DNA of 60,856 bases, filler included, from Collodictyon triciliatum (lineage: Eukaryota), in assembly GCA_043381765.1 (NCBI GenBank). It is 5 parts of 5 records of this genome, joined end to end, with 100 filler letters (N's around TTAATTAATTAA, not from the genome) between each part and the next. Parts side by side here need not be neighbours in the genome. Positions count along the whole stretch, not along the records: positions 7,728 to 22,515 come from JBHJMP010001773.1; 4 more parts are not named here. One strand, given 5' to 3'. Shown in pieces: positions 318 to 48,242 of the stretch (positions are counted from its first letter, which is position 1; each line of letters starts with the position of its first letter). The notes under the pieces were generated by a model that was given only the letters and a program-made list of their open reading frames with translations, was not told where the DNA came from and did not search any database. A program made the position numbers and the translations under genes.

Positions 318-3300
318 TTAATAACGCTGCGGTTCATCGTATGGACTCAAGGCTATTCCATAAATCGATTGCGAGCGTAGTTCTTCCCTGCGTTGTTTGC
401 CCGTGGCTGAGTGACTGCTCGCCGTCACCAAATCTCGTTGTCTTTGCTGAATAAACAAGTGGTGGAAGGGAATATCGACCCCGCTTATAGTCACCCCTGT
501 CAACCTGGATAGCAACGAATCAGGTATCTTCGATATTGGATTGTTGTTCAAATTGATGCTTTTAAGAGCAGTGAGTCTGGTGATATCCTCTGGTAGCTCT
601 GATATTTGATTAGATGAAATGTCTAAGCTGATTAAAAAAGCTTGCAGCAGCGCCAGCGAGTCGGGCAGTGATTCAAGTGACATACCTACCAGGTGCGCTG
701 TCGTCTGTTTCGTATTAAATAATTGCAAGATATTTTCCTCGACTTGACTCAATGGATTCATATCCAACGAAACATTTCTTAGTTTTGGTAGGTAAAATAG
801 TGAGGCCGGTATTTTTGAAAACATATTTGATGTCAGGGTGATTGATTGTAGATTGGTCAAAAGGGAACAACAGTCTGGTAAGTCCCAAAGCGCATTGTTT
901 GATAGGTCGATATGGCTTACTCTTGTTAATTGTAATATGTGGTGGTGCTCCAGGCGAGGGAGGCGGTTCTTTGTGTGAATAAACTCATCTGATTGTAGAC
1001 CTGTGCATAACTCTATACTTATATCAAGGCAAAATATCGGATTATCAGCAATATTTAGGTATGTCAACTCCTTCGTCTTTGGTAACCAAGCCGATGAAAA
1101 AGTCATCAACCTGTTTGATTGCAACGATAACTTGCGTAATGAACCCAAGTACGTGAACGTGGCTGGTAATGTACTGATCATATTCGAAGAAATACCCAAA
1201 TCTTCCAAGAACTTGATTGCCGAGATTCCTTCAGGAATTTCATCCAACAGGTTAAGTGATAAATCCAGCTTTTTTATAGTGGTAATCTCAAGCAAAGACT
1301 TTGGTAAGTTTTCCAATAAATTGTGAGACAGATTCACCACAAGTAATGACTGGAGCAACGAAAACGAAGAAGGTAGGCATCGAAGTAGGTTGTTGGACAA
1401 GTCAATCATTTTCATTTTTTCCCAGAATTCTGAGATGTATGGTATATGTGTGATGCGATTGTTATGCAAAGATAGGCATTCTACCTCGGAAAAACGATGC
1501 AACGTATGTGGGACACTACTCAAGTGTAAACTTTGAAAGCAAAAAATATTACAGTCTCTCTCTGCAGTTTTCATGCATTCTGAAAGAGTTATGTTGCTTT
1601 CTACATATCCTCGAATTTGCGTATCTTCAAGTGCTGCTGTCGAGTCAACGATAGTATCCATTCTCCAGTTGGGCCATGCCTTGAGAATGTCCATTTTCTC
1701 AAACAAACCTATATTCTCATCCGATGAAACAAGCCTATTTCCATACATCTCAACGGCACGGAGCTTGTTCATTTTGCCCATTGCAAATTTTGGGATACTT
1801 CTGAAATAATTGTAGCTAATAAAGAGCATTTCCAATCTTGTTGCATGACAAAGAGACTCTGGGAGCTCAGACACGTAGTTTTTTCGTATATTTAGAATTT
1901 TCAACTCTCCCAAATCAAACAACTCTTTTGGGATATTAACGAGAAAGTTTTTCTCCAGACTAAGAGAGCTCAAAAGTGTCCATTTCGCTACGGTGGGTGC
2001 TAAAATTCTTATTTTGTTGTCTTGTAAACTTAAAGATTGCAGCTTGACGAAAGGAATTTGTTCTTCCCATTCAGACTCTAGCCCAATATTATTCTTTGAT
2101 AGGTTTAAAGACTCAATATTGGTAAGAGTTGAAAATCCTATTGGTAAGCGGCTGATATAGTTGCTTGACAGATTCAAGCGCTTCATCCCGACACAATTAA
2201 GTATAGATTCAGGAATATCATAAATATGATGGCTTGAAAAATCGGCCATAACAAGTTGAGTCAAGATTCCGATGCCGTTGGGTATGGTCATGGGATAATT
2301 CAACTGAGGGATTTTCCATATGCTTTTCTTTTTTTCGTACATTTCCATCAAGTAGCGGTGTCCTGTTGATATTGGGTTGTTTTCAACTATAATTTGAATT
2401 CCAAATGAATTCGAGGCAAATTTGTCTGGGATATCGCTCAGCCGATTTTTGGTTGCATTAAGCATGGTAAGTTCTTTCATGAATGCAATAGATGAGGGAA
2501 TCGATGTTATCTCATTATGGGATACATTCAAATTATTTAGAGCTTGCATTTGTTCCCAATTATTTGGCAGCTCTGAAATTTTATTATGAGATATTGACAA
2601 AGTTACCAACGAAGTGTACCCCAGTATAGAACCAGGGAATAATTTGAATTTGTTTTGAGAAATGTTCAGATGCTTTAAGTAAGGCAAATTTACCGAATCA
2701 ATGGCAAAATCTTCTAATGAATTATGTTGAATGTTTAATACTTCCAAAACCGAAAATGATGTGGAGGAGAGGGTCTGGTGTAATACATTGATATTTCCAT
2801 GGGTGATGTGAAATTGCAATAAATTAGGTAGTTTAAGCATGAAGGAGAAATCTCCTATAATTGATTTCGAAATACTCAGGCACGTCAAATGGGATGGAAG
2901 CCAGTTCAAGTATGCAAACGACTCAGGAGGCGAAGCTATGTGATGTATAAATGAGCTTTCCATATTTAATATACACCTGGACACATTCAGTTCTATGCCA
3001 TCAAATAAGTTATTATTAATGCATAACATTTTCAAATTTGACATGGATGTTATTTCCGTAGGTAAGTGACGCAATTTATTATTGTCCAAATTCAAAAACT
3101 GCAGCTCTTTTAATAAATGTATTCCAGGAGGTAAAGCCCTGAGGATGTTGTCAGATAGGTTAAGTTTTAACAAATTAGTTAGATTCCATAAAGAACTGGA
3201 AATATCAACTAGATAGTTTCCAGACAAATTGAGACTGAGGAGATTTGTGAGACATGATATCTCTTCGGGTAGTACAACAACAGAACCTTGCACGTCGAGT

Positions 3301-4648
3301 CGCAGTAAATTTTGACACTCAAATATCTCTTTGGGGATGTAATCCTGATGACCGATGTCAACAACGAGAATCTTGATATTACTCGGAGACATTTTTGAAA
3401 ACACTTGACAGATGAGGATATCCAAGTTGGCATTTATTGCTCGCGGAGAATCACGAGACAGGAAATCATCTTTATAGAATAGTAGTCAGTTTTCTTTTTT
3501 TTCTTCAAAAATGAATTTATATTTTAAATGAATTTTGACTAGTTTTCAATAAGTTTAGTCCACTTACTAGAGCTGAACAATGGGATTTTAGGTCCACGCC
3601 AAAATGATATCAATTGTGATGAGAAATCATCAGATAAACTGGAAGCATTTTGTAGTTCTTGCGGTATGTGTGAAGGACTTCGGCCATAATCATCGTATAG
3701 GGGTGTATGAAAATCATGAAACGGGTTCTGTTTTGTTGTAGAATTTGGACAGTGGTATAAAATAAAATTATCATGTGATTTTGTGGGCACTTTCCCAATT
3801 ATAAGCGACATTATATCGATGTTATCTTGAATTAGAGGTTTTTCTACACCCAAAGAATGGTCTTGATTGCTTTCTGGGTTGTGTGCAGATGTTTCTATGC
3901 CATCGTATCCATTATCATAACCATCATAGTCATAGTCATCATAGCCGTCATCATCGTCATCATTGTAATCATTATGACTGTCATAATTGTAATATCCGCC
4001 ATGATACCCACCTCGATACCCACCACGATATCCACCACGATATCCACCACGATATCCACCACGATATCCACCTCGGGGCCCTCTGAGTGCCCCGCGAAAT
4101 TCACTTTCAAGCCTGTATTCACGCGGTTTGATATGACCCGATTGAATAAAACAGTTGTAATTGATTGACAGTTCACTGGTCAATTTCAAAAATTCTTCTT
4201 GATTTGTGTCTCTGTCAACGTCCATATAAACCTGATTAGGGTTACTATGATGACCAAAGGAATCAAGGTAACTTCGACCGATATAGTTGGCCTCAGCCTG
4301 ATAAGGAGCCCCACCAAATCGGAACGATTCGGGATAGTGCACGGATGTTTGAGATTTTTTCCTGAGGAATGAAATTCTTGCTACTGTCATGGTTTCACTG
4401 CGCCTGGAGGATGACCCGTGATAAGGAGATGCGTCTTCCGATGACTCCGGGGTCTCCGGGATGGGCACTTTGTCGCGTACCCTTCCAAAAGTAATGATGT
4501 GATGTGCCTCACTGAAACTGTTCCAATGGTGATGCGCCCAGTCGCGTGAAATAAACATTGTGCTTTTCTTATCCACGGAGAAATCTGCAGAGAAAAAGTG
4601 AGTGTCATTTAGTTTCTCAGACTGCCCTAACGCTCCTTTTGACGTCAT
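318..4648 (-). CDS. Large leucine-rich-repeat protein (~1410 aa) with an RGG/acidic low-complexity N-terminus; 2 exons (4648-3568, 3469-318)
   Basis: ORF 318-3425 consists of dozens of LxxLxLxxNxL repeats. ORF 3539-4648 joins it in frame through a GTAAGT...CTGAC...AAAG intron at 3567-3470 (FSS-N-DFLSRDSPRAINANLDILIC). Confidence 0.85.
3990..4076 (-). repeat. Coding 12-bp tandem repeat encoding (RGGY)n
   Basis: CCACCACGATAT units on +; translation RGGYRGGYRGGYRGGYRGGYRGGYHGGYY. Confidence 0.9.
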
Positions 4649-7627: not shown

Positions 7628-7727
7628 NNNNNNNNNNNNNNNNNNNNNNNNNNNNNNNNNNNNNNNNNNNNTTAATTAATTAANNNNNNNNNNNNNNNNN
7701 NNNNNNNNNNNNNNNNNNNNNNNNNNN
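7628..7727. other. Artificial scaffold linker
   Basis: N44-TTAATTAATTAA-N44 (stops in all six frames); identical at four places. Confidence 0.97.
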
Positions 7728-7787: not shown

Positions 7788-7839
<52 letters not shown>

Positions 7840-8523
7840 CAAAATTATAAAGGATATTGGCAATCTTAGAGGCAGAAAATACGGCGAGATGGCTTTCAAC
7901 AGGTGTATCAGAATAGTCATGCCCCTGTAAGTCCAGATGAAATCCGATAGCTTTCCACTATTATCTGGATTGACGAAAGCAGGAGCTTTGATGAATCCAA
8001 GAAACAACCTGAATGATATAATAGTATGATTAGCAATATACTAAGTTTAAAAAACTTAATAATAATCATTCTATTCCTATAATCAATTTATATTTTTTTC
8101 GTTTATGTAATATTATTTCAAAAATGACAAATAAGCCCTTGCCTTGTCCCAGACAGAACCCACCCTATTAACCTGCCACCAAACATGCATTTCAAAAAAG
8201 CACACTATCCACACTTGCGGCGGTAATCATGTTGTTTGAGGCCGATATGTTGACTTTCGGTCGCAATGGCTATACGGCCGTCCTTTCGAACCCGCCGAAT
8301 CAGCTCTCAGCGTTTTGTCTCAAATCACTTATAAAAAACTTTATGTGTTTGTTTGCCACAATGCGCATATTATGAAAGCCTCGGTAGGTGCTTAATTTTA
8401 CCTGAATTGATTTTATGCAGTTTTTTTCTTTTTTTATTATTAAATTGACTAATTGATTAATGTTTTATTAAAATTGAAACTTCGGTAGTTTTCTAAAGGA
8501 AATAGTAAAACCAAGACTTTCAG

Positions 8524-10400
8524 ATGAATAAAAGAAAACGCCTTGAGTCTGAGAATCTGAAGTCTGTAAAACCAGACTATCGAAATCTGAAAACATCTCA
8601 AAAGTCGATTGTAAAGAATCCGGATGACTATGACAAAATCAACGATACGGTTTTATTGTGTCATAATTTGGTTACCGACACTTATCTGTTTGTAAGATGT
8701 TGCATATTGAAATCACAACAACACCCAACAATCGATGAAAAGTTTTTGTACGCTTTAAAGACAGTCGGGGTTGTTTCACAAGATAGAACCACAAGTTTTT
8801 TTTAAAACATCCAGATGAGTTAAGATATGATGAATTTTTATCTCAATGATTTTCGATTCCTTTTGTCCCAAGAAGAACGCTTTCCGTTGTTTGGATTGTC
8901 TCATATATTATGGTACCTGGCGAAGCAAATGTTAACAGCTTATCATAATAACACCAAGGACATTTTGTAAAGAGGCTACTGCGCTTTATAAATCAAACAG
9001 TTCCTAAATATGAGAGTATTACGAAAGTTATTAAAAAGGCAGACTTACAGAATTTTAAAAAAAAAAGCCATCTTCATGAAACCCGAAATACCGGAACAAT
9101 ATAAAGGATGGGCTGCAATACATTTGCATCATATCATTCCCAGCGATATTGTAAATGGTATCGAATATGACATCAAAGTCAATACAAATAAGTATATTCC
9201 ATGTATGATTCACATGAATCGCATTTTTTGAGGGCATTGGAACCAAACCGTTTCAACCATTCTCTATAAGAACTAACAATACACCATGCCATATTAGCCT
9301 AGATGCTGCATGCTTGATAGATCTATTAGTATTATCTGGAAAAACAAAATTATTGGATAATATATCAAGATGCAAAGAGACCCTATGGGATAAGTTCTTT
9401 GAAATGAAGAAGAGGGTCTTTCATCAAAGAGTCTACAATTTTAAATACATGATACAAACAGACAGCTTGGCGGTGTCATTATTGTTTGAAGAGAATGGGT
9501 TTTCAAATTCAAAATTCAAATATGATCAAAAACAAAGAATATGTCTATATAGATGAGTTTTCCGAAGAGCAGCTATCTTTGTTAGGGATAATAATAACAG
9601 TTGGAGTGGACGCAGGCAAGTTTAATTCGGTTTACATGGTGGATGAGACAGGCAAGAAATTACGTTGCACGGCACACCAAAGAAGACATGATAGCAAATC
9701 TCTTGAAAATCACAAAATACTCTTGCGCGAGAAAGAAAAGTGCAATCCTTTTCGGATACGCATGGCGACAGATTTACAAATTGTTGTTTCTTTTGGTCCC
9801 AAAACTTTTGAAGAGAATCAGCAGTTTGAGACATTAAGAATATCTTTAATCGATTTAGAGACACAACTGAAACGTAATTCATGCACGGTCGATTATGAAA
9901 AATTTCGGGGATATGTATCTATGAAATCAAGATACCACATAGTATTTTCCGGATTTTATGAACACGTAACTTTTCGTAAGATGAAATGGAGACAGTATGT
10001 TAATACAAAAAGAAGTGAACAATTGTTTATGGACCGAATCGAAAAGACATTTGGCAAGGATGTTGTACTGGCGTATGGAGACTAGAGCAGAAAATCTCCG
10101 ATGAAACATTTTATGCCAACAAATGGAAGAGGATTACGAAAAATATTATCCAAACGTTTTGAAACAGTTAGTGTAGATGAATTTAGAACCTCCAAGATGT
10201 GATGCAACTGCGAAAAAGAGCTGGAATATGTAGCACTGAAAGGAAATACAAAAAAGTATATATGTCTCATATGTAAAGAATGCAATCGCTCAGAAAGCAA
10301 AGAAACTGTATTCTTGACAAGGGACTTAGCAGCACTAATAATATACTCAAGAAAATTCTTTAATCCTTCAAAATATTCATACACCTTCCTCTTTTAAAAA
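8524..10400 (+). pseudogene. Fanzor1: Fanzor1 (TnpB-like RNA-guided RuvC endonuclease), disrupted by frameshifts and stops
   Basis: Motifs: YMIQTDSLAVSLLF; RuvC-I VGVDAG (Asp 9609-9611); YGD[W>TAG]S; RuvC-II VDEFRTSK (Glu 10179-10181, the rearranged position typical of Fanzor); zinc finger CNC...CKEC; RuvC-III TRD (Asp 10323-10325). Confidence 0.9.
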
Positions 10401-10404
10401 GAAA

Positions 10405-10495
10405 AAGGCTGTTAGGTCTTTCCCTGGCAGCCTTCACCACTACACAACCTTTGTGAAAAAAGTGGTGAGGCCTTGGATACTGGCGACCAGGTTTA
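10405..10495 (+). ncRNA. Putative omegaRNA scaffold of Fanzor copy 1
   Basis: Three adjacent hairpins at the ORF 3' end: 10407-10416/10423-10432; 10434-10441/10461-10468 with inner CACAA/TTGTG; 10469-10476/10487-10493. Conserved in copy 2. Confidence 0.65.
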
Positions 10496-11094
10496 ACGAA
10501 TCGAAAGATGGTATACTCCTAGTAAATAAAACAGATGACAACAAATTAGGGCAATCTTGTTTTGCAAACAAATGAAGCGTGTAGGATATCCCTCCTGTGA
10601 CAAGCCCTTCCAGTTTTCCGTGTCTTTTATCTCAGATACATATTGTCCAATCCTTATGCGATGGATAATGTAGCCACCTTGCATAAGCCAACAAGTATAG
10701 CCAAAAAAATAAATAAAGATTTAACTTTCAAAAGTCATGGGCTGATTGGTAAACATGAGGAGGCAGACAGAAAAACATTTACAAGCCTGTAGGCTACAGA
10801 TACATGAGTTTTCTCGAAGTAGATTGATAAAGATTTTTACACATGGTCGATGATGTTTATAGGAAGTTTGGGGATTGGGTATGGCCAGAAATTGAAACTC
10901 AGGATAAAAAAATGGACGCAAGGAACGGGAGATAAGCAAAATGCGTGCTAGTATTTCAGCTCAGGAAGTGACCCAACTCGATGAAAGTTAGGTTGGTTGG
11001 GGCCAGGTGGATGTGTGAACTCAGGTGATAAAATGAATGGAGCGGATGGCGATGCGGGAGGAGACTGTCATGAGACGGTTTCCAAAGTCGAGCC

Positions 11095-12366
<1,272 letters not shown>

Positions 12367-45500: not shown

Positions 45501-45739
45501 CCTCAAATTCCTTGCTTTTTTTTTTTTAATGCAAACAAGGCATGCAGTACCCTCACATCTGATAAAATAAAATATATATAAAAAATAGTTATCAATAGAA
45601 AGTTAATGACATTGTCCATGAAAGCGCAACGAAGACACACAACGACAGAATATACTTATTTCGTGCTATTATCACCATATTATTTCTATAATGTGGAATT
45701 TATTGGATTTATGATATATGTATTATTTACTAGAAGGGG

Positions 45740-45830
45740 TAAACCTGGTCGCAAGTATCCAAGGTCTCGCCACTTTTTTCACAAAGATTGTGCAGTGGTG
45801 AAGGCTGCCAGGAAAGACCCAACAACATGT
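45740..45830 (-). ncRNA. Putative omegaRNA scaffold of Fanzor copy 2
   Basis: Same three hairpins as copy 1; substitutions in stem 1 give G-U pairs. Confidence 0.6.
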
Positions 45831-47714
45831 TTTTTAGAGGAAGGTGTATGCATTTTTTGAAGGATTAAAGGAACTTTGTTGAGTATATTATTAGCGCTGT
45901 TAGAGTCCCTTGTCGAAAATACACTTTGTTTGCTTTCTGAGCGATTGCATTCTTTACACATGAGACATCTATACACTTTTTTTTTGAATTTCCTTTACGG
46001 TTTCATATATTCCAGTTCTTATTCGCAGTTGTAGCACACCTTGAAGGTTCTAAATTCATTTAAAATAAACGTTTCAACGTTTGGATAGTTTTTTTTCGTA
46101 ATCCTCTTCCGATTGTTGGCATAAAATGTTTCATCGGAGATTTTCTGCTCCAGTCTCCATACGCCAGTACAACATCCTTGCCAATTATCTTTTCGATGCT
46201 GTCCATAAACAATTGTTCACTTCTTTTTGTGTTAACATACTGCCTCCATCTCACCTTTCGAAAAGTTACTTATTCATAAAATCCGGAAAGTTCTAACCGG
46301 AATCTTGATTTCATAGATACATCCGAAACTATTCATAATCGACCGTGCATGAATTATATTTACTCAATTCTGTCTCTAAATCGATTAAATATGCTCTTAA
46401 TGTCTCAAACTGCCGATTCTCTTCAAAAGTCCTGAAACCAAAAGAAATAGCACTTTGTAAACATGTTGCCATGCATATCCCTGAAGCATTGTACTTTTTT
46501 TTTCTCGCGCAAGAGTATTTTGTGATTTTTAAGAGGTTTGCTATCATGTCTTATTTGATGTGTCGTGTAACGTAATTTCTTACCTGCCTCATCCACCATG
46601 TAAACCAAATCAAACTTGCTTGCATCCACTCCAACTATTTTTTTGTCGCTAATAAAGATAACTGCTCTTCGGTAAGTTCATCTATATAGACATATTCTTG
46701 GTTTTTTTGATTATATTTGGATTTCGAATTTGAAATACCTTTCTTTTCAAACAATAATGACACCGCCAAGTCGTCTGTTTGTATCATGTATTTAAAATTG
46801 TAGTCTCTTTGATGAAAGACCCTCTTCTTCATTTCAAAGAAATTATCTCATAGTCTCTTTGCATCCTGACATATTATTATTTAATATTGTTTCTCCAGAT
46901 AAAAAATACAAATCTATCAAACGTGCAGCATCCAGAGTAATATGACATGGTATATTGTTAGTTCTTATAGAGACTGGTTGAAACTGTTTGGCTCCAATGT
47001 CCTCAAAAATGCAATTCATGTAAATCAGACATGGAATGTACTTATTTGGATTGACTTTGACGACATATTCGATAGCTTTTACAATATCGCTGGGAATCAT
47101 ATAATGCAAATGTGTTGTAGCCCATTCTTTATATTGTTCCGGTATTTCGAGATTCTTAAGATGGCCTTTTTTTAACTTTCGTAACTCTACCTTTTTAATA
47201 GCTTCCGTAATATTCTCGTCTTTAGGAACTGTTTGGTTTATAAAGTACACTAACCTCTTTACAAAATGCTCCTTAATGTTATTATGATAAGCTGTGAAGA
47301 TTTGCTTCGCCAAGTATGGTAATACATGACACAGCCTAACCAACGGAAAGCGTTCATATCGGGACTAAAGGAATCGAAAATCATTGAGATAAAAAGTCAT
47401 CATGTCTTCACTCATATCTGGTTTTTTTTTTTTAATCTTGTGTGTCTATCTTGTGAAATTATTCCGAATGTCTTTAAAGCGTACAAAAAAAAACCATTTC
47501 ATCGATTGTTGGGAGCTGTTGTGATTTCAATATGTAACATCCTGCTAACAGATAAGTGTCGGTAACCGAATTATGACACAATAAACCCGTATCGTTGATT
47601 GTGTTATAGTCATCCGCATTCTTTACAATCGACTTTAGGGATGCTTTCACATTTTGATAGTCTGATTTTACAGACTTTATATTCTCAGACTCAAGACGTT
47701 TTTTTTTTTTTCAT
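45779..47714 (-). pseudogene. Fanzor1: Fanzor1, disrupted
   Basis: YLAKQIFTAYHNNIKEHFVKRL, YMIQTDDLAVSLLF, IVGVDASKF (RuvC-I), YGDWSRKSPMKHFMPT, NEFRT (RuvC-II), CYNC...CKEC, TRDSNSANNIL (RuvC-III). Confidence 0.9.
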
Positions 47715-48242
47715 ATGGAGTCTTTGTTTTACTTTTTCCTTTGAAAACTACCGAGTTTTCAATTTTAATAAAACTTAAGGCAATCAGTCAATTTAATTTA
47801 AAAAAACTGCGCAAAATCAATATATGTAAAACTAAGCATCTACCAAGACTCTCAAAATGTGCACATTGTGGCAAACAAACACACACAAAGTTTTTTACAA
47901 GTGATTTGAGACAAAACGCTAAGAGCCGATTTGGCGAGTTTGAAAGGATGGCCTTATAGCCATGGCGACAGAAAGTCAAGATATCGGCCCCAAACAACAT
48001 GATTACCGCCGCAAGTGTGGATAGTATGCTTTTTTGGAATGCATGTTTGACGGCAGGTTTATAGCGCGGGTTCTTTCTGAGTCAAGGCAAGGACTTGCTT
48101 TCCATTCTTTAATTTTAATGATAATGTCACAAAATGGAAAATAAAATATAAATTGATTATAGGAATAGAATGATATTATAAAGTATTTTTAGCCTTATTA
48201 TACATACTAGTTATACTATTATATTATTCAGGTTGTTTAATA

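Follow-up and report, generated by a model that had tools for sequence, protein, structure and literature searches.

A stretch of ~89 nt at the 3' end of a broken Fanzor1 gene of Collodictyon triciliatum, from about 10407 to 10495 (+) of the 60,856-nucleotide stretch of DNA analyzed here (the window), is probably, by descent, the omegaRNA scaffold of a Fanzor1 transposon, which survives as a relic in two decayed copies. We favor this reading because the position, strand, size, and conserved fold of the stretch fit the published omegaRNA design; the window scaffold is a further example of that design and not a new kind of system. The first-pass annotation had reached the same inference from differences between the two copies that are compatible with G-U pairing in the sense strand. 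The inference is supported on other grounds: decisive support comes from a cross-family covariance-model test and not from the two-copy G-U argument, which carries no statistical weight.

The element and its two copies

Comparing the window with itself (blastn) gave one long repeat, 8002-10495 (+) against 48238-45740 (-), with 85.0% identity over 2532 columns. Its two members, copy 1 (8002-10495, +) and copy 2 (45740-48238, -, delimited by the self-match and by reading of the sequence), each correspond to a Fanzor1-only element of ~2.5 kb. The likeness ends at 10495 in copy 1 and at 45740 in copy 2, right after ...CCAGGTTTA, which is where the first-pass annotation had placed the stop in identity, and the bases beyond differ. 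The final element bases are TTA (10493-10495, +), as judged from the end of identity between the copies and from the viral relatives described below, and the last TA may have arisen by target-site duplication. With the element delimited as AAC...GTT, TA stands at both sides of copy 2 (TA...TA), and the flanks of copy 1 are GA (left) and TA (right), a comparison of two loci only. No terminal inverted repeat above random was detected in the window element, the left end scoring 14 and 16 against the reverse-complemented right end, compared with 18.3 ± 3.5 for shuffles. Just upstream of the left end of copy 1 are two N runs around TTAATTAATTAA and a 49-base poly-T (7628-7727, 7789-7837), so that this flank is poorly assembled. 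Between the left end and the Fanzor1 start codon, ~520 bp of non-coding sequence is conserved in both copies (8002-8520 and 48238-47715 (-)) and may be a promoter or 5' UTR.

The broken Fanzor1 gene of copy 1 was traced by three-frame translation from an ATG at 8524 to a TGA at 10454-10456 (8524-10456, +), in a frame that is open in copy 2. It is interrupted by TAG at 10086-10088, by TGA at 10200-10202, and by several frame shifts; the copy 2 gene is likewise fragmented by stops and frame shifts, its parts belonging to a single long reading frame. Because the ORF in the copy 2 frame ends at a TGA equivalent to 10454-10456, the stretch at 10405-10495 runs in the same direction as the Fanzor1 gene and takes in its last ~16 codons. 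Readable motifs include VGVDAG, VDEFRTSK, CxxC...CxxC, and TRD, which we take to be RuvC I, RuvC II, the zinc ribbon, and RuvC III, respectively. A search with P0001, a read-through of 9504-10397 with X placed at two stops, returned six longer proteins (627-712 aa), none of them more than 62% identical. The best match is P0002, an intact protein of 648 aa that aligns with 91% of P0001 at 62% identity; by eye, its N terminus resembles the ORF at 8524-8805. P0002 in turn matches the solved Fanzor1 chains from Guillardia theta (9cer, 2e-28), Parasitella parasitica (9cf0, 3e-24), and Spizellomyces punctatus (8gkh, 4e-23), and this match identifies the element, of which the window has two copies, as a decayed transposon with Fanzor1 as its only gene. 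Pfam gave no useful match on single ORF pieces of the gene, a weak Cas12f1-like_TNB match on the P0001 read-through (E = 0.18), and matches to the same domain on the relatives P0003-P0005 with E values of 3e-5 to 4e-4. RuvC D-E-D motifs, a zinc-ribbon TNB insert, a size of ~600-700 aa, and solved homologues are all found, for a gene that is not intact. Because both Fanzor1 genes in the window are dead, the two loci could act only with protein made elsewhere; that is, each is a relic unless an intact copy serves it in trans.

A search of public runs for the stretch returned none with the whole stretch and none of RNA. Two runs whose type was guessed to be RNA but may be DNA (X2 and X8) hold 419 and 388 contigs over the element at 80%-99% likeness, and the presence of ~400 contigs in each indicates that this Fanzor1 element family is abundant in related organisms. 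Contig cover is absent at 10524-10814 in X2/X8, as would be expected if the element ended near 10495, although this does not count as evidence for such an end. Position 10414 is G, the same state as in copy 2, in three contigs of X2 and two of X8; the X2/X8 contig table holds few differences within 10405-10495, too few for a covariation count. A 151-nt contig in a further run, X1, is identical over 10374-10524. At 10815-10900 the summed contig depth is high in X2 (134) and X8 (128), and a loose poly-T immediately precedes 10834; the sequence here belongs to a different repeat family, which adjoins the element and lies outside it.

Anatomy and folding of the 3' stretch

Stem 1 (10407-10432, +), recognized from the sequence, from RNAfold, and from stem A of the closest relatives, has 10 bp and a 6-nt loop; its arms are GGCTGTTAGG (10407-10416) and CCTGGCAGCC (10423-10432), and it includes two U-G pairs, T10412-G10427 and T10413-G10426, all in exact agreement with the first-pass coordinates. 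Stem 2 (10434-10468, +) comprises an outer helix (10434-10441/10461-10468) and an inner hairpin (10443-10447/10451-10455), separated by an A-rich 1 x 5 internal loop. Stem 3 (10470-10492, +; 10470-10476/10487-10492), drawn from the two-copy comparison, uses the last bases of the element and has, as had been claimed, 6 bp with one bulged T (T10473). The copy 2 scaffold occupies 45740-45827 (-), with stem 1 at 45827-45803, stem 2 at 45801-45767, and stem 3 at 45765-45743. The stretch thus lies at the 3' end of Fanzor1 on the same strand, runs to the right end of the element, and is followed by a locus-specific flank, with a boundary that is uncertain by 2 nt. The candidate guides are the copy-specific flanks at 10496-10511 (+) for copy 1, which is unlike copy 2 from 10496 onward, and at 45724-45739 (-) for copy 2. 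The first-pass annotation had these guides begin with ACGAATCGAAAGATGG (copy 1) and CCCCTTCTAGTAAATA (copy 2); these are indeed the bases that follow the end, but if, by analogy with the viral relatives, the last TA is target-derived, the guide may start 2 nt earlier.

The differences between the copies were as annotated, with one addition. In stem 1 of copy 2, a C>T and an A>G change convert a C-G and an A-U pair to U-G and G-U, and a third change that had gone unmentioned, G>T, breaks the first pair. Stem 2 with its nested hairpin likewise agrees with the earlier description, its single mismatch in copy 2 being an A-C at the site of T10466. In stem 3 the change G10470>A turns a G-U into an A-U pair, and all 12 cells are paired. 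Over the three stems of both copies, 56 of 58 cells are paired, with three one-sided compatible changes, two breaks, and no double change. The weight that had been placed on this pattern did not survive a count of expectations: of the transitions that could occur at paired sites, ~55% would leave a standard pair, so that the observed three of four are expected by chance (P for at least three of four, 0.39). Moreover, both copies are pseudogenes, and the differences between them are mostly neutral decay after insertion; two such copies therefore cannot test selection on the RNA, and we discarded their G-U pattern as proof, taken alone, of strand-specific RNA selection.

RNAfold reproduced stems 1 and 2 in both copies. 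The copy 1 fold (-36.4 kcal/mol, z = -3.37) was not equaled by any of 200 shuffles and is stronger than its antisense counterpart (-31.1 kcal/mol). The copy 2 fold (-24.6 kcal/mol, z = -0.76) was equaled by 43 of 200 shuffles and by its own antisense strand (-24.9 kcal/mol), and this lack of excess stability counts against the scaffold reading. Stem 3 appears in the centroid structures; in the minimum free energy structure of copy 1 its place is taken by a 4-bp hairpin, one that is unable to form in copy 2. The relatives gave no comparative support for stem 3, which is backed by the two copies only. Over 10200-10700, Rfam returned nothing near threshold (best E = 0.2, unrelated). A descriptor of the A-rich 1 x 5 internal loop was tried as a specific motif and rejected, since the window yielded seven matches and shuffles 4.2 ± 1.9; copy 2 does not satisfy this descriptor because its bulged base is G.

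Base pairing in giant-virus and metagenome Fanzor1 loci

We used an alignment (A1) of P0002-P0007 to scan metagenome contigs and viral contigs, the latter including many giant-virus bins, and retained 160 loci (L001-L160), namely the best 80 of 526 confirmed metagenome stretches and the best 80 of 335 confirmed viral stretches. Their proteins are 37%-47% identical to P0002, the C-terminal 75 residues are present in all 160, and they provide 120 distinct full-length 3' segments. In 110 of these 120 segments, drawn from the best 80 plus best 80 loci, a conserved region overlaps the end of the ORF; it stops sharply at ...TTTAAATG....AAGGTGTA, and the flanks beyond are unrelated. Among 16 loci examined, 11 carry a perfect inverted repeat of their final 20 nt farther upstream, and TA borders the element on the outer side of each end; of the remaining five, one has a copy with a single mismatch and four have no copy in the fetched DNA. 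The inverted 20-nt ends and outer TA indicate that these relatives are mariner-like elements, of 2.4-4.8 kb, as described by Bao and Jurka for viral Fanzor1 elements (PMC3627910). The viral relatives end in ...GGTG + TA, with TA at the left end too. Examples with perfect terminal repeats of at least 20 nt are L002 1639-4950 and L007 2588-4946. The base that precedes the left TA is T in all 12 loci for which the left end was found, which may reflect a TAM or a target preference.

For the pairing analysis of the relatives themselves, we assembled an alignment (A2) of 56 sequences, that is, 55 of 56 representatives (<90% identity; L094 was left out owing to a long insertion) plus L006. An outer helix, a lone C-G pair, and a hairpin (hairpin B) are together 98.1% paired in this alignment, and 9 of 12 pairs have changed on both sides; none of 500 shuffles reaches this level of pairing, slid controls give 36%-53%, and hairpin B covaries strongly among the 56 relatives. 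A further stem, stem A, was found in all seven of the closest of the 160 loci (L001-L006 and L083), where it has 10-13 bp and ends 1-9 nt before a conserved TTCAC; its sequence is quite different across L001-L003, L004, L005, L006, and L083. A MAFFT alignment of these seven (A3) set stem A out of register, so no model was built from it. Lineage-specific insertions occur in hairpin B and other 3' hairpins (L094 3761-3950, L043, L095, L126, L139, L153), the L094 insertion being a long GC-rich extension inserted in AT-rich genomes, and the 3' hairpin loops of the relatives appear to tolerate expansion. The right-end motif AAAGGTGTAAA occurs twice, 8 nt apart, in L013 (about 4571-4610), and may be a footprint or a tandem end.

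A covariance model built from the 56 relatives, most of which belong to the AT-rich viral group (R1), found neither copy in the window; its 10 matches, all with E values of at least 2.1, lay elsewhere. We also built a model (R2) from the two window copies only, with all three stems, stem 3 being one column out of register. Within the window, R2 found only the two copies (next best E = 0.68), with a score of 114.8 bits for copy 2 that is high by construction. Searched with default filters against 100 of the 160 loci, its top match was L001 4791-4889 (+) with E = 7.5e-4, followed by L083 (+) with E = 0.68 and by an unrelated match on the minus strand with E = 4.9; no AT-rich locus was found at E up to 10 among these 100. 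With filters off, against the nine closest of the 160 loci, the best match lay at the 3' end of Fanzor1 on the plus strand in eight of nine, with E values of 1.1e-5 (L082 and L084), 1.3e-5 (L003), 5.8e-5 (L001), 0.0016 (L002), 0.052 (L083), 0.28 (L005), and 0.63 (L006); L004 gave no match up to E = 10, and an unrelated match at L005 48-153 (E = 0.5) outranks that of L006. The R2 alignments share one register, in which stem 1 aligns with stem A, the stem 2 outer helix with that of the relatives, the bulged A with the A of TTCAC, the five-A run with AGAAA/AAAAA, and the inner hairpin with hairpin B. A sequence-only control made from the same two-copy alignment (R3) reached at best 2.3 bits (E = 8.1, at L001). 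Since R3 fails where R2 matches, the likeness lies in base pairing and not in shared letters.

We then counted pairs in a joint alignment (A5) of eight rows, made up of the two window copies and L082, L003, L001, L002, L083, and L005; L084 (identical to L082 here), L004 (no match), and L006 (above the cut-off) were left out, and the count covered helices 1-3 only, with stem 3 (helix 4) excluded. In A5, 93.4% of cells are paired, against 44%-49% when the alignment is slid, and none of 500 shuffles reaches this value; both members have changed in 16 of 23 pairs (stem 1, 9 of 10; outer helix, 3 of 8; inner hairpin, 4 of 5), although these pair counts are inflated by the fitting of A5 to the model, and the close kinship of L001, L082, L003, and L002 reduces the rows to about four independent lineages. 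Stems 1 and 2 therefore show the covariation looked for in a Fanzor1 omegaRNA.

Alternative readings and relation to known Fanzor systems

The hairpins might instead be a cis-acting element of the transposon end or of the mRNA 3' end, such as a DNA or single-strand structure for transposition or a transcript stabilizer or terminator, and not a guide-RNA scaffold. We consider this unlikely, while granting it a real if small chance. The conserved 3' region of the viral relatives closes with a perfect terminal inverted repeat of at least 20 nt (11 of 16 loci, plus one with a single mismatch), so that part of the conservation near the end is due to transposase binding, and in the window stem 3 is built from terminal bases. 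Stems 1 and 2, however, are located within coding sequence at a distance of 27-89 nt from the end, clear of the relatives' inverted repeat, and they have been kept by compensatory change although the encoded amino acids differ. The matches are moreover strand-specific, with G-U pairs that become A-C on the other strand, the window element is without an inverted repeat above random, and the position, size, and adjoining variable flank of the stretch match the published omegaRNA design.

That the hairpins are chance products of a decaying repeat and were never functional is, in our view, very improbable. Such an origin would account for a copy 2 fold that is no better than those of shuffles (equaled by 43 of 200), for a two-copy substitution pattern within chance (P = 0.39), and for an A-rich 1 x 5 loop descriptor that is common in this AT-rich window (7 versus 4.2 ± 1.9). 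It does not account for the z score of copy 1 (-3.37), for covariation in A5 far above the slid controls, or for a two-copy model that matches the homologous place in eight of nine relatives with E values down to 1e-5 when the sequence-only model does not.

In the scaffold reading, sense transcription of an intact element would run through the end of the Fanzor1 gene, across the right end, and into the flank. The ~89 nt from about 10407 to 10495 would form three helical parts, namely stem 1, then stem 2, which is long and has an A-rich internal loop, and finally stem 3 at the terminus; Fanzor1 would bind this folded scaffold, and the next ~15-20 nt of flank would form the guide. Through the guide, the RuvC nuclease would be brought to DNA in which a matching sequence adjoins a short motif (TAM), as at a target site that the element does not yet occupy. 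Of this account, what we observe is the anatomy, a gene of Fanzor1 identity, the placement and strand of the stretch, and compensatory conservation of stems 1 and 2 among distant relatives; what we infer is that the RNA is transcribed, processed, bound by the protein, and used as a guide, and where precisely the scaffold starts and stops.

The TnpB omegaRNA (or reRNA) of IS200/IS605 elements has the same design, overlapping the 3' end of the nuclease gene and the right end of the element and taking its guide from the flank; these systems are prokaryotic, and their protein size and scaffold differ from those of the window element. Like the window element, the viral relatives have stem A, the outer helix, and hairpin B where their Fanzor1 gene ends, and both kinds terminate in GGT-N-TA, copy 2 also having TA on both sides; the left flank of copy 1 is GA, not TA. 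The viral relatives differ in possessing extra hairpins and perfect inverted repeats of at least 20 nt at their termini, neither of which the window element has, and the conserved 3' region spans ~120-190 nt in the former against 89 nt in the window, where 27 nt are left after stem 2. The giant-virus Fanzor1 elements PGv-1, PUl-4, and their relatives have been classified as Mariner/Tc1-type (Bao and Jurka 2013, PMC3627910).

Among Fanzor1-only elements, a close counterpart in layout is Spu-1 of Spizellomyces punctatus (Saito 2023, PMC10432273). It too has a right-end scaffold, of ~75-90 nt, that uses the terminal bases and is followed by locus-specific sequence, and it too has loci without a working nuclease gene. 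The SpuFz1 RNA is given there as 88-90 nt long, spanning the right inverted repeat and running 14-15 nt into variable sequence, and "ghost" loci without the gene are stated still to give working scaffolds in S. punctatus (PMC10432273). Inverted repeats of 30 nt, of which none is detectable in the window element, are present in Spu-1, and the Spu-1 RNA is encoded 3' of the stop codon, whereas the window scaffold overlaps the last ~16 codons, the two being compared by layout only (PMC10432273). According to Xu 2024 (PMC11423790), the solved Fanzor1 omegaRNAs are 75, 90, and 150 nt long, so that the window scaffold, like those of GtFz1 and PpFz1, falls inside the 75-150 nt range and consists of a series of stem-loops 5' of the guide. 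The same source describes a first stem-loop that contacts the RuvC and TNB domains in three solved complexes and an omegaRNA region beyond it that varies between species, as in GtFz1 and PpFz1; that first stem-loop has 7 bp, unlike the 10 bp of window stem 1, a comparison of lengths alone (PMC11423790). For ApmFNuc and CrFNuc-1, Jiang 2023 (PMC10530073) reports a structured conserved 3' non-coding region that reaches into the coding sequence and extends up to the right end, and the fRNAs of both resemble the window scaffold in this respect. They differ from it in setting, ApmFNuc being a Fanzor2 in an IS607-type element and CrFNuc-1 lying in Helitron-like elements (PMC10530073).

The scaffold of a eukaryotic genomic Fanzor1 family is here linked to giant-virus Fanzor1 by structure and not by sequence, and this structural tie supports an exchange of Fanzor1 elements between giant viruses and their hosts. 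The comparison also points to parts of the scaffold that are dispensable, the middle hairpins and the inverted-repeat module having been lost and stem A, the outer helix, and hairpin B kept; a compact natural scaffold of this kind is of possible interest for shortening omegaRNAs for genome editing. The general understanding of Fanzor1/omegaRNA systems is unchanged. A bolder version, which we think quite doubtful, is that this is a naturally minimized ~89-nt scaffold and that numerous decayed copies, the two described here among them, still supply working "ghost" guides to a nuclease made from a few intact copies elsewhere in the genome; if so, the inverted-repeat module and two hairpins of the giant-virus kin would have been shed, and the dead elements would constitute a guide repertoire.

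The surroundings of the element are eukaryotic nuclear DNA with N runs and microsatellites. An uninterrupted ORF of 1035 aa encoding leucine-rich repeats occupies 318-3425 (-) (LRR_8, E = 7e-60). Beyond the right end of copy 1, at 11190-11414 (-), lies an exon for the C-terminal part of the domain of CFA20, a ciliary/flagellar protein (E = 1.3e-34), which indicates that the host builds cilia or flagella.
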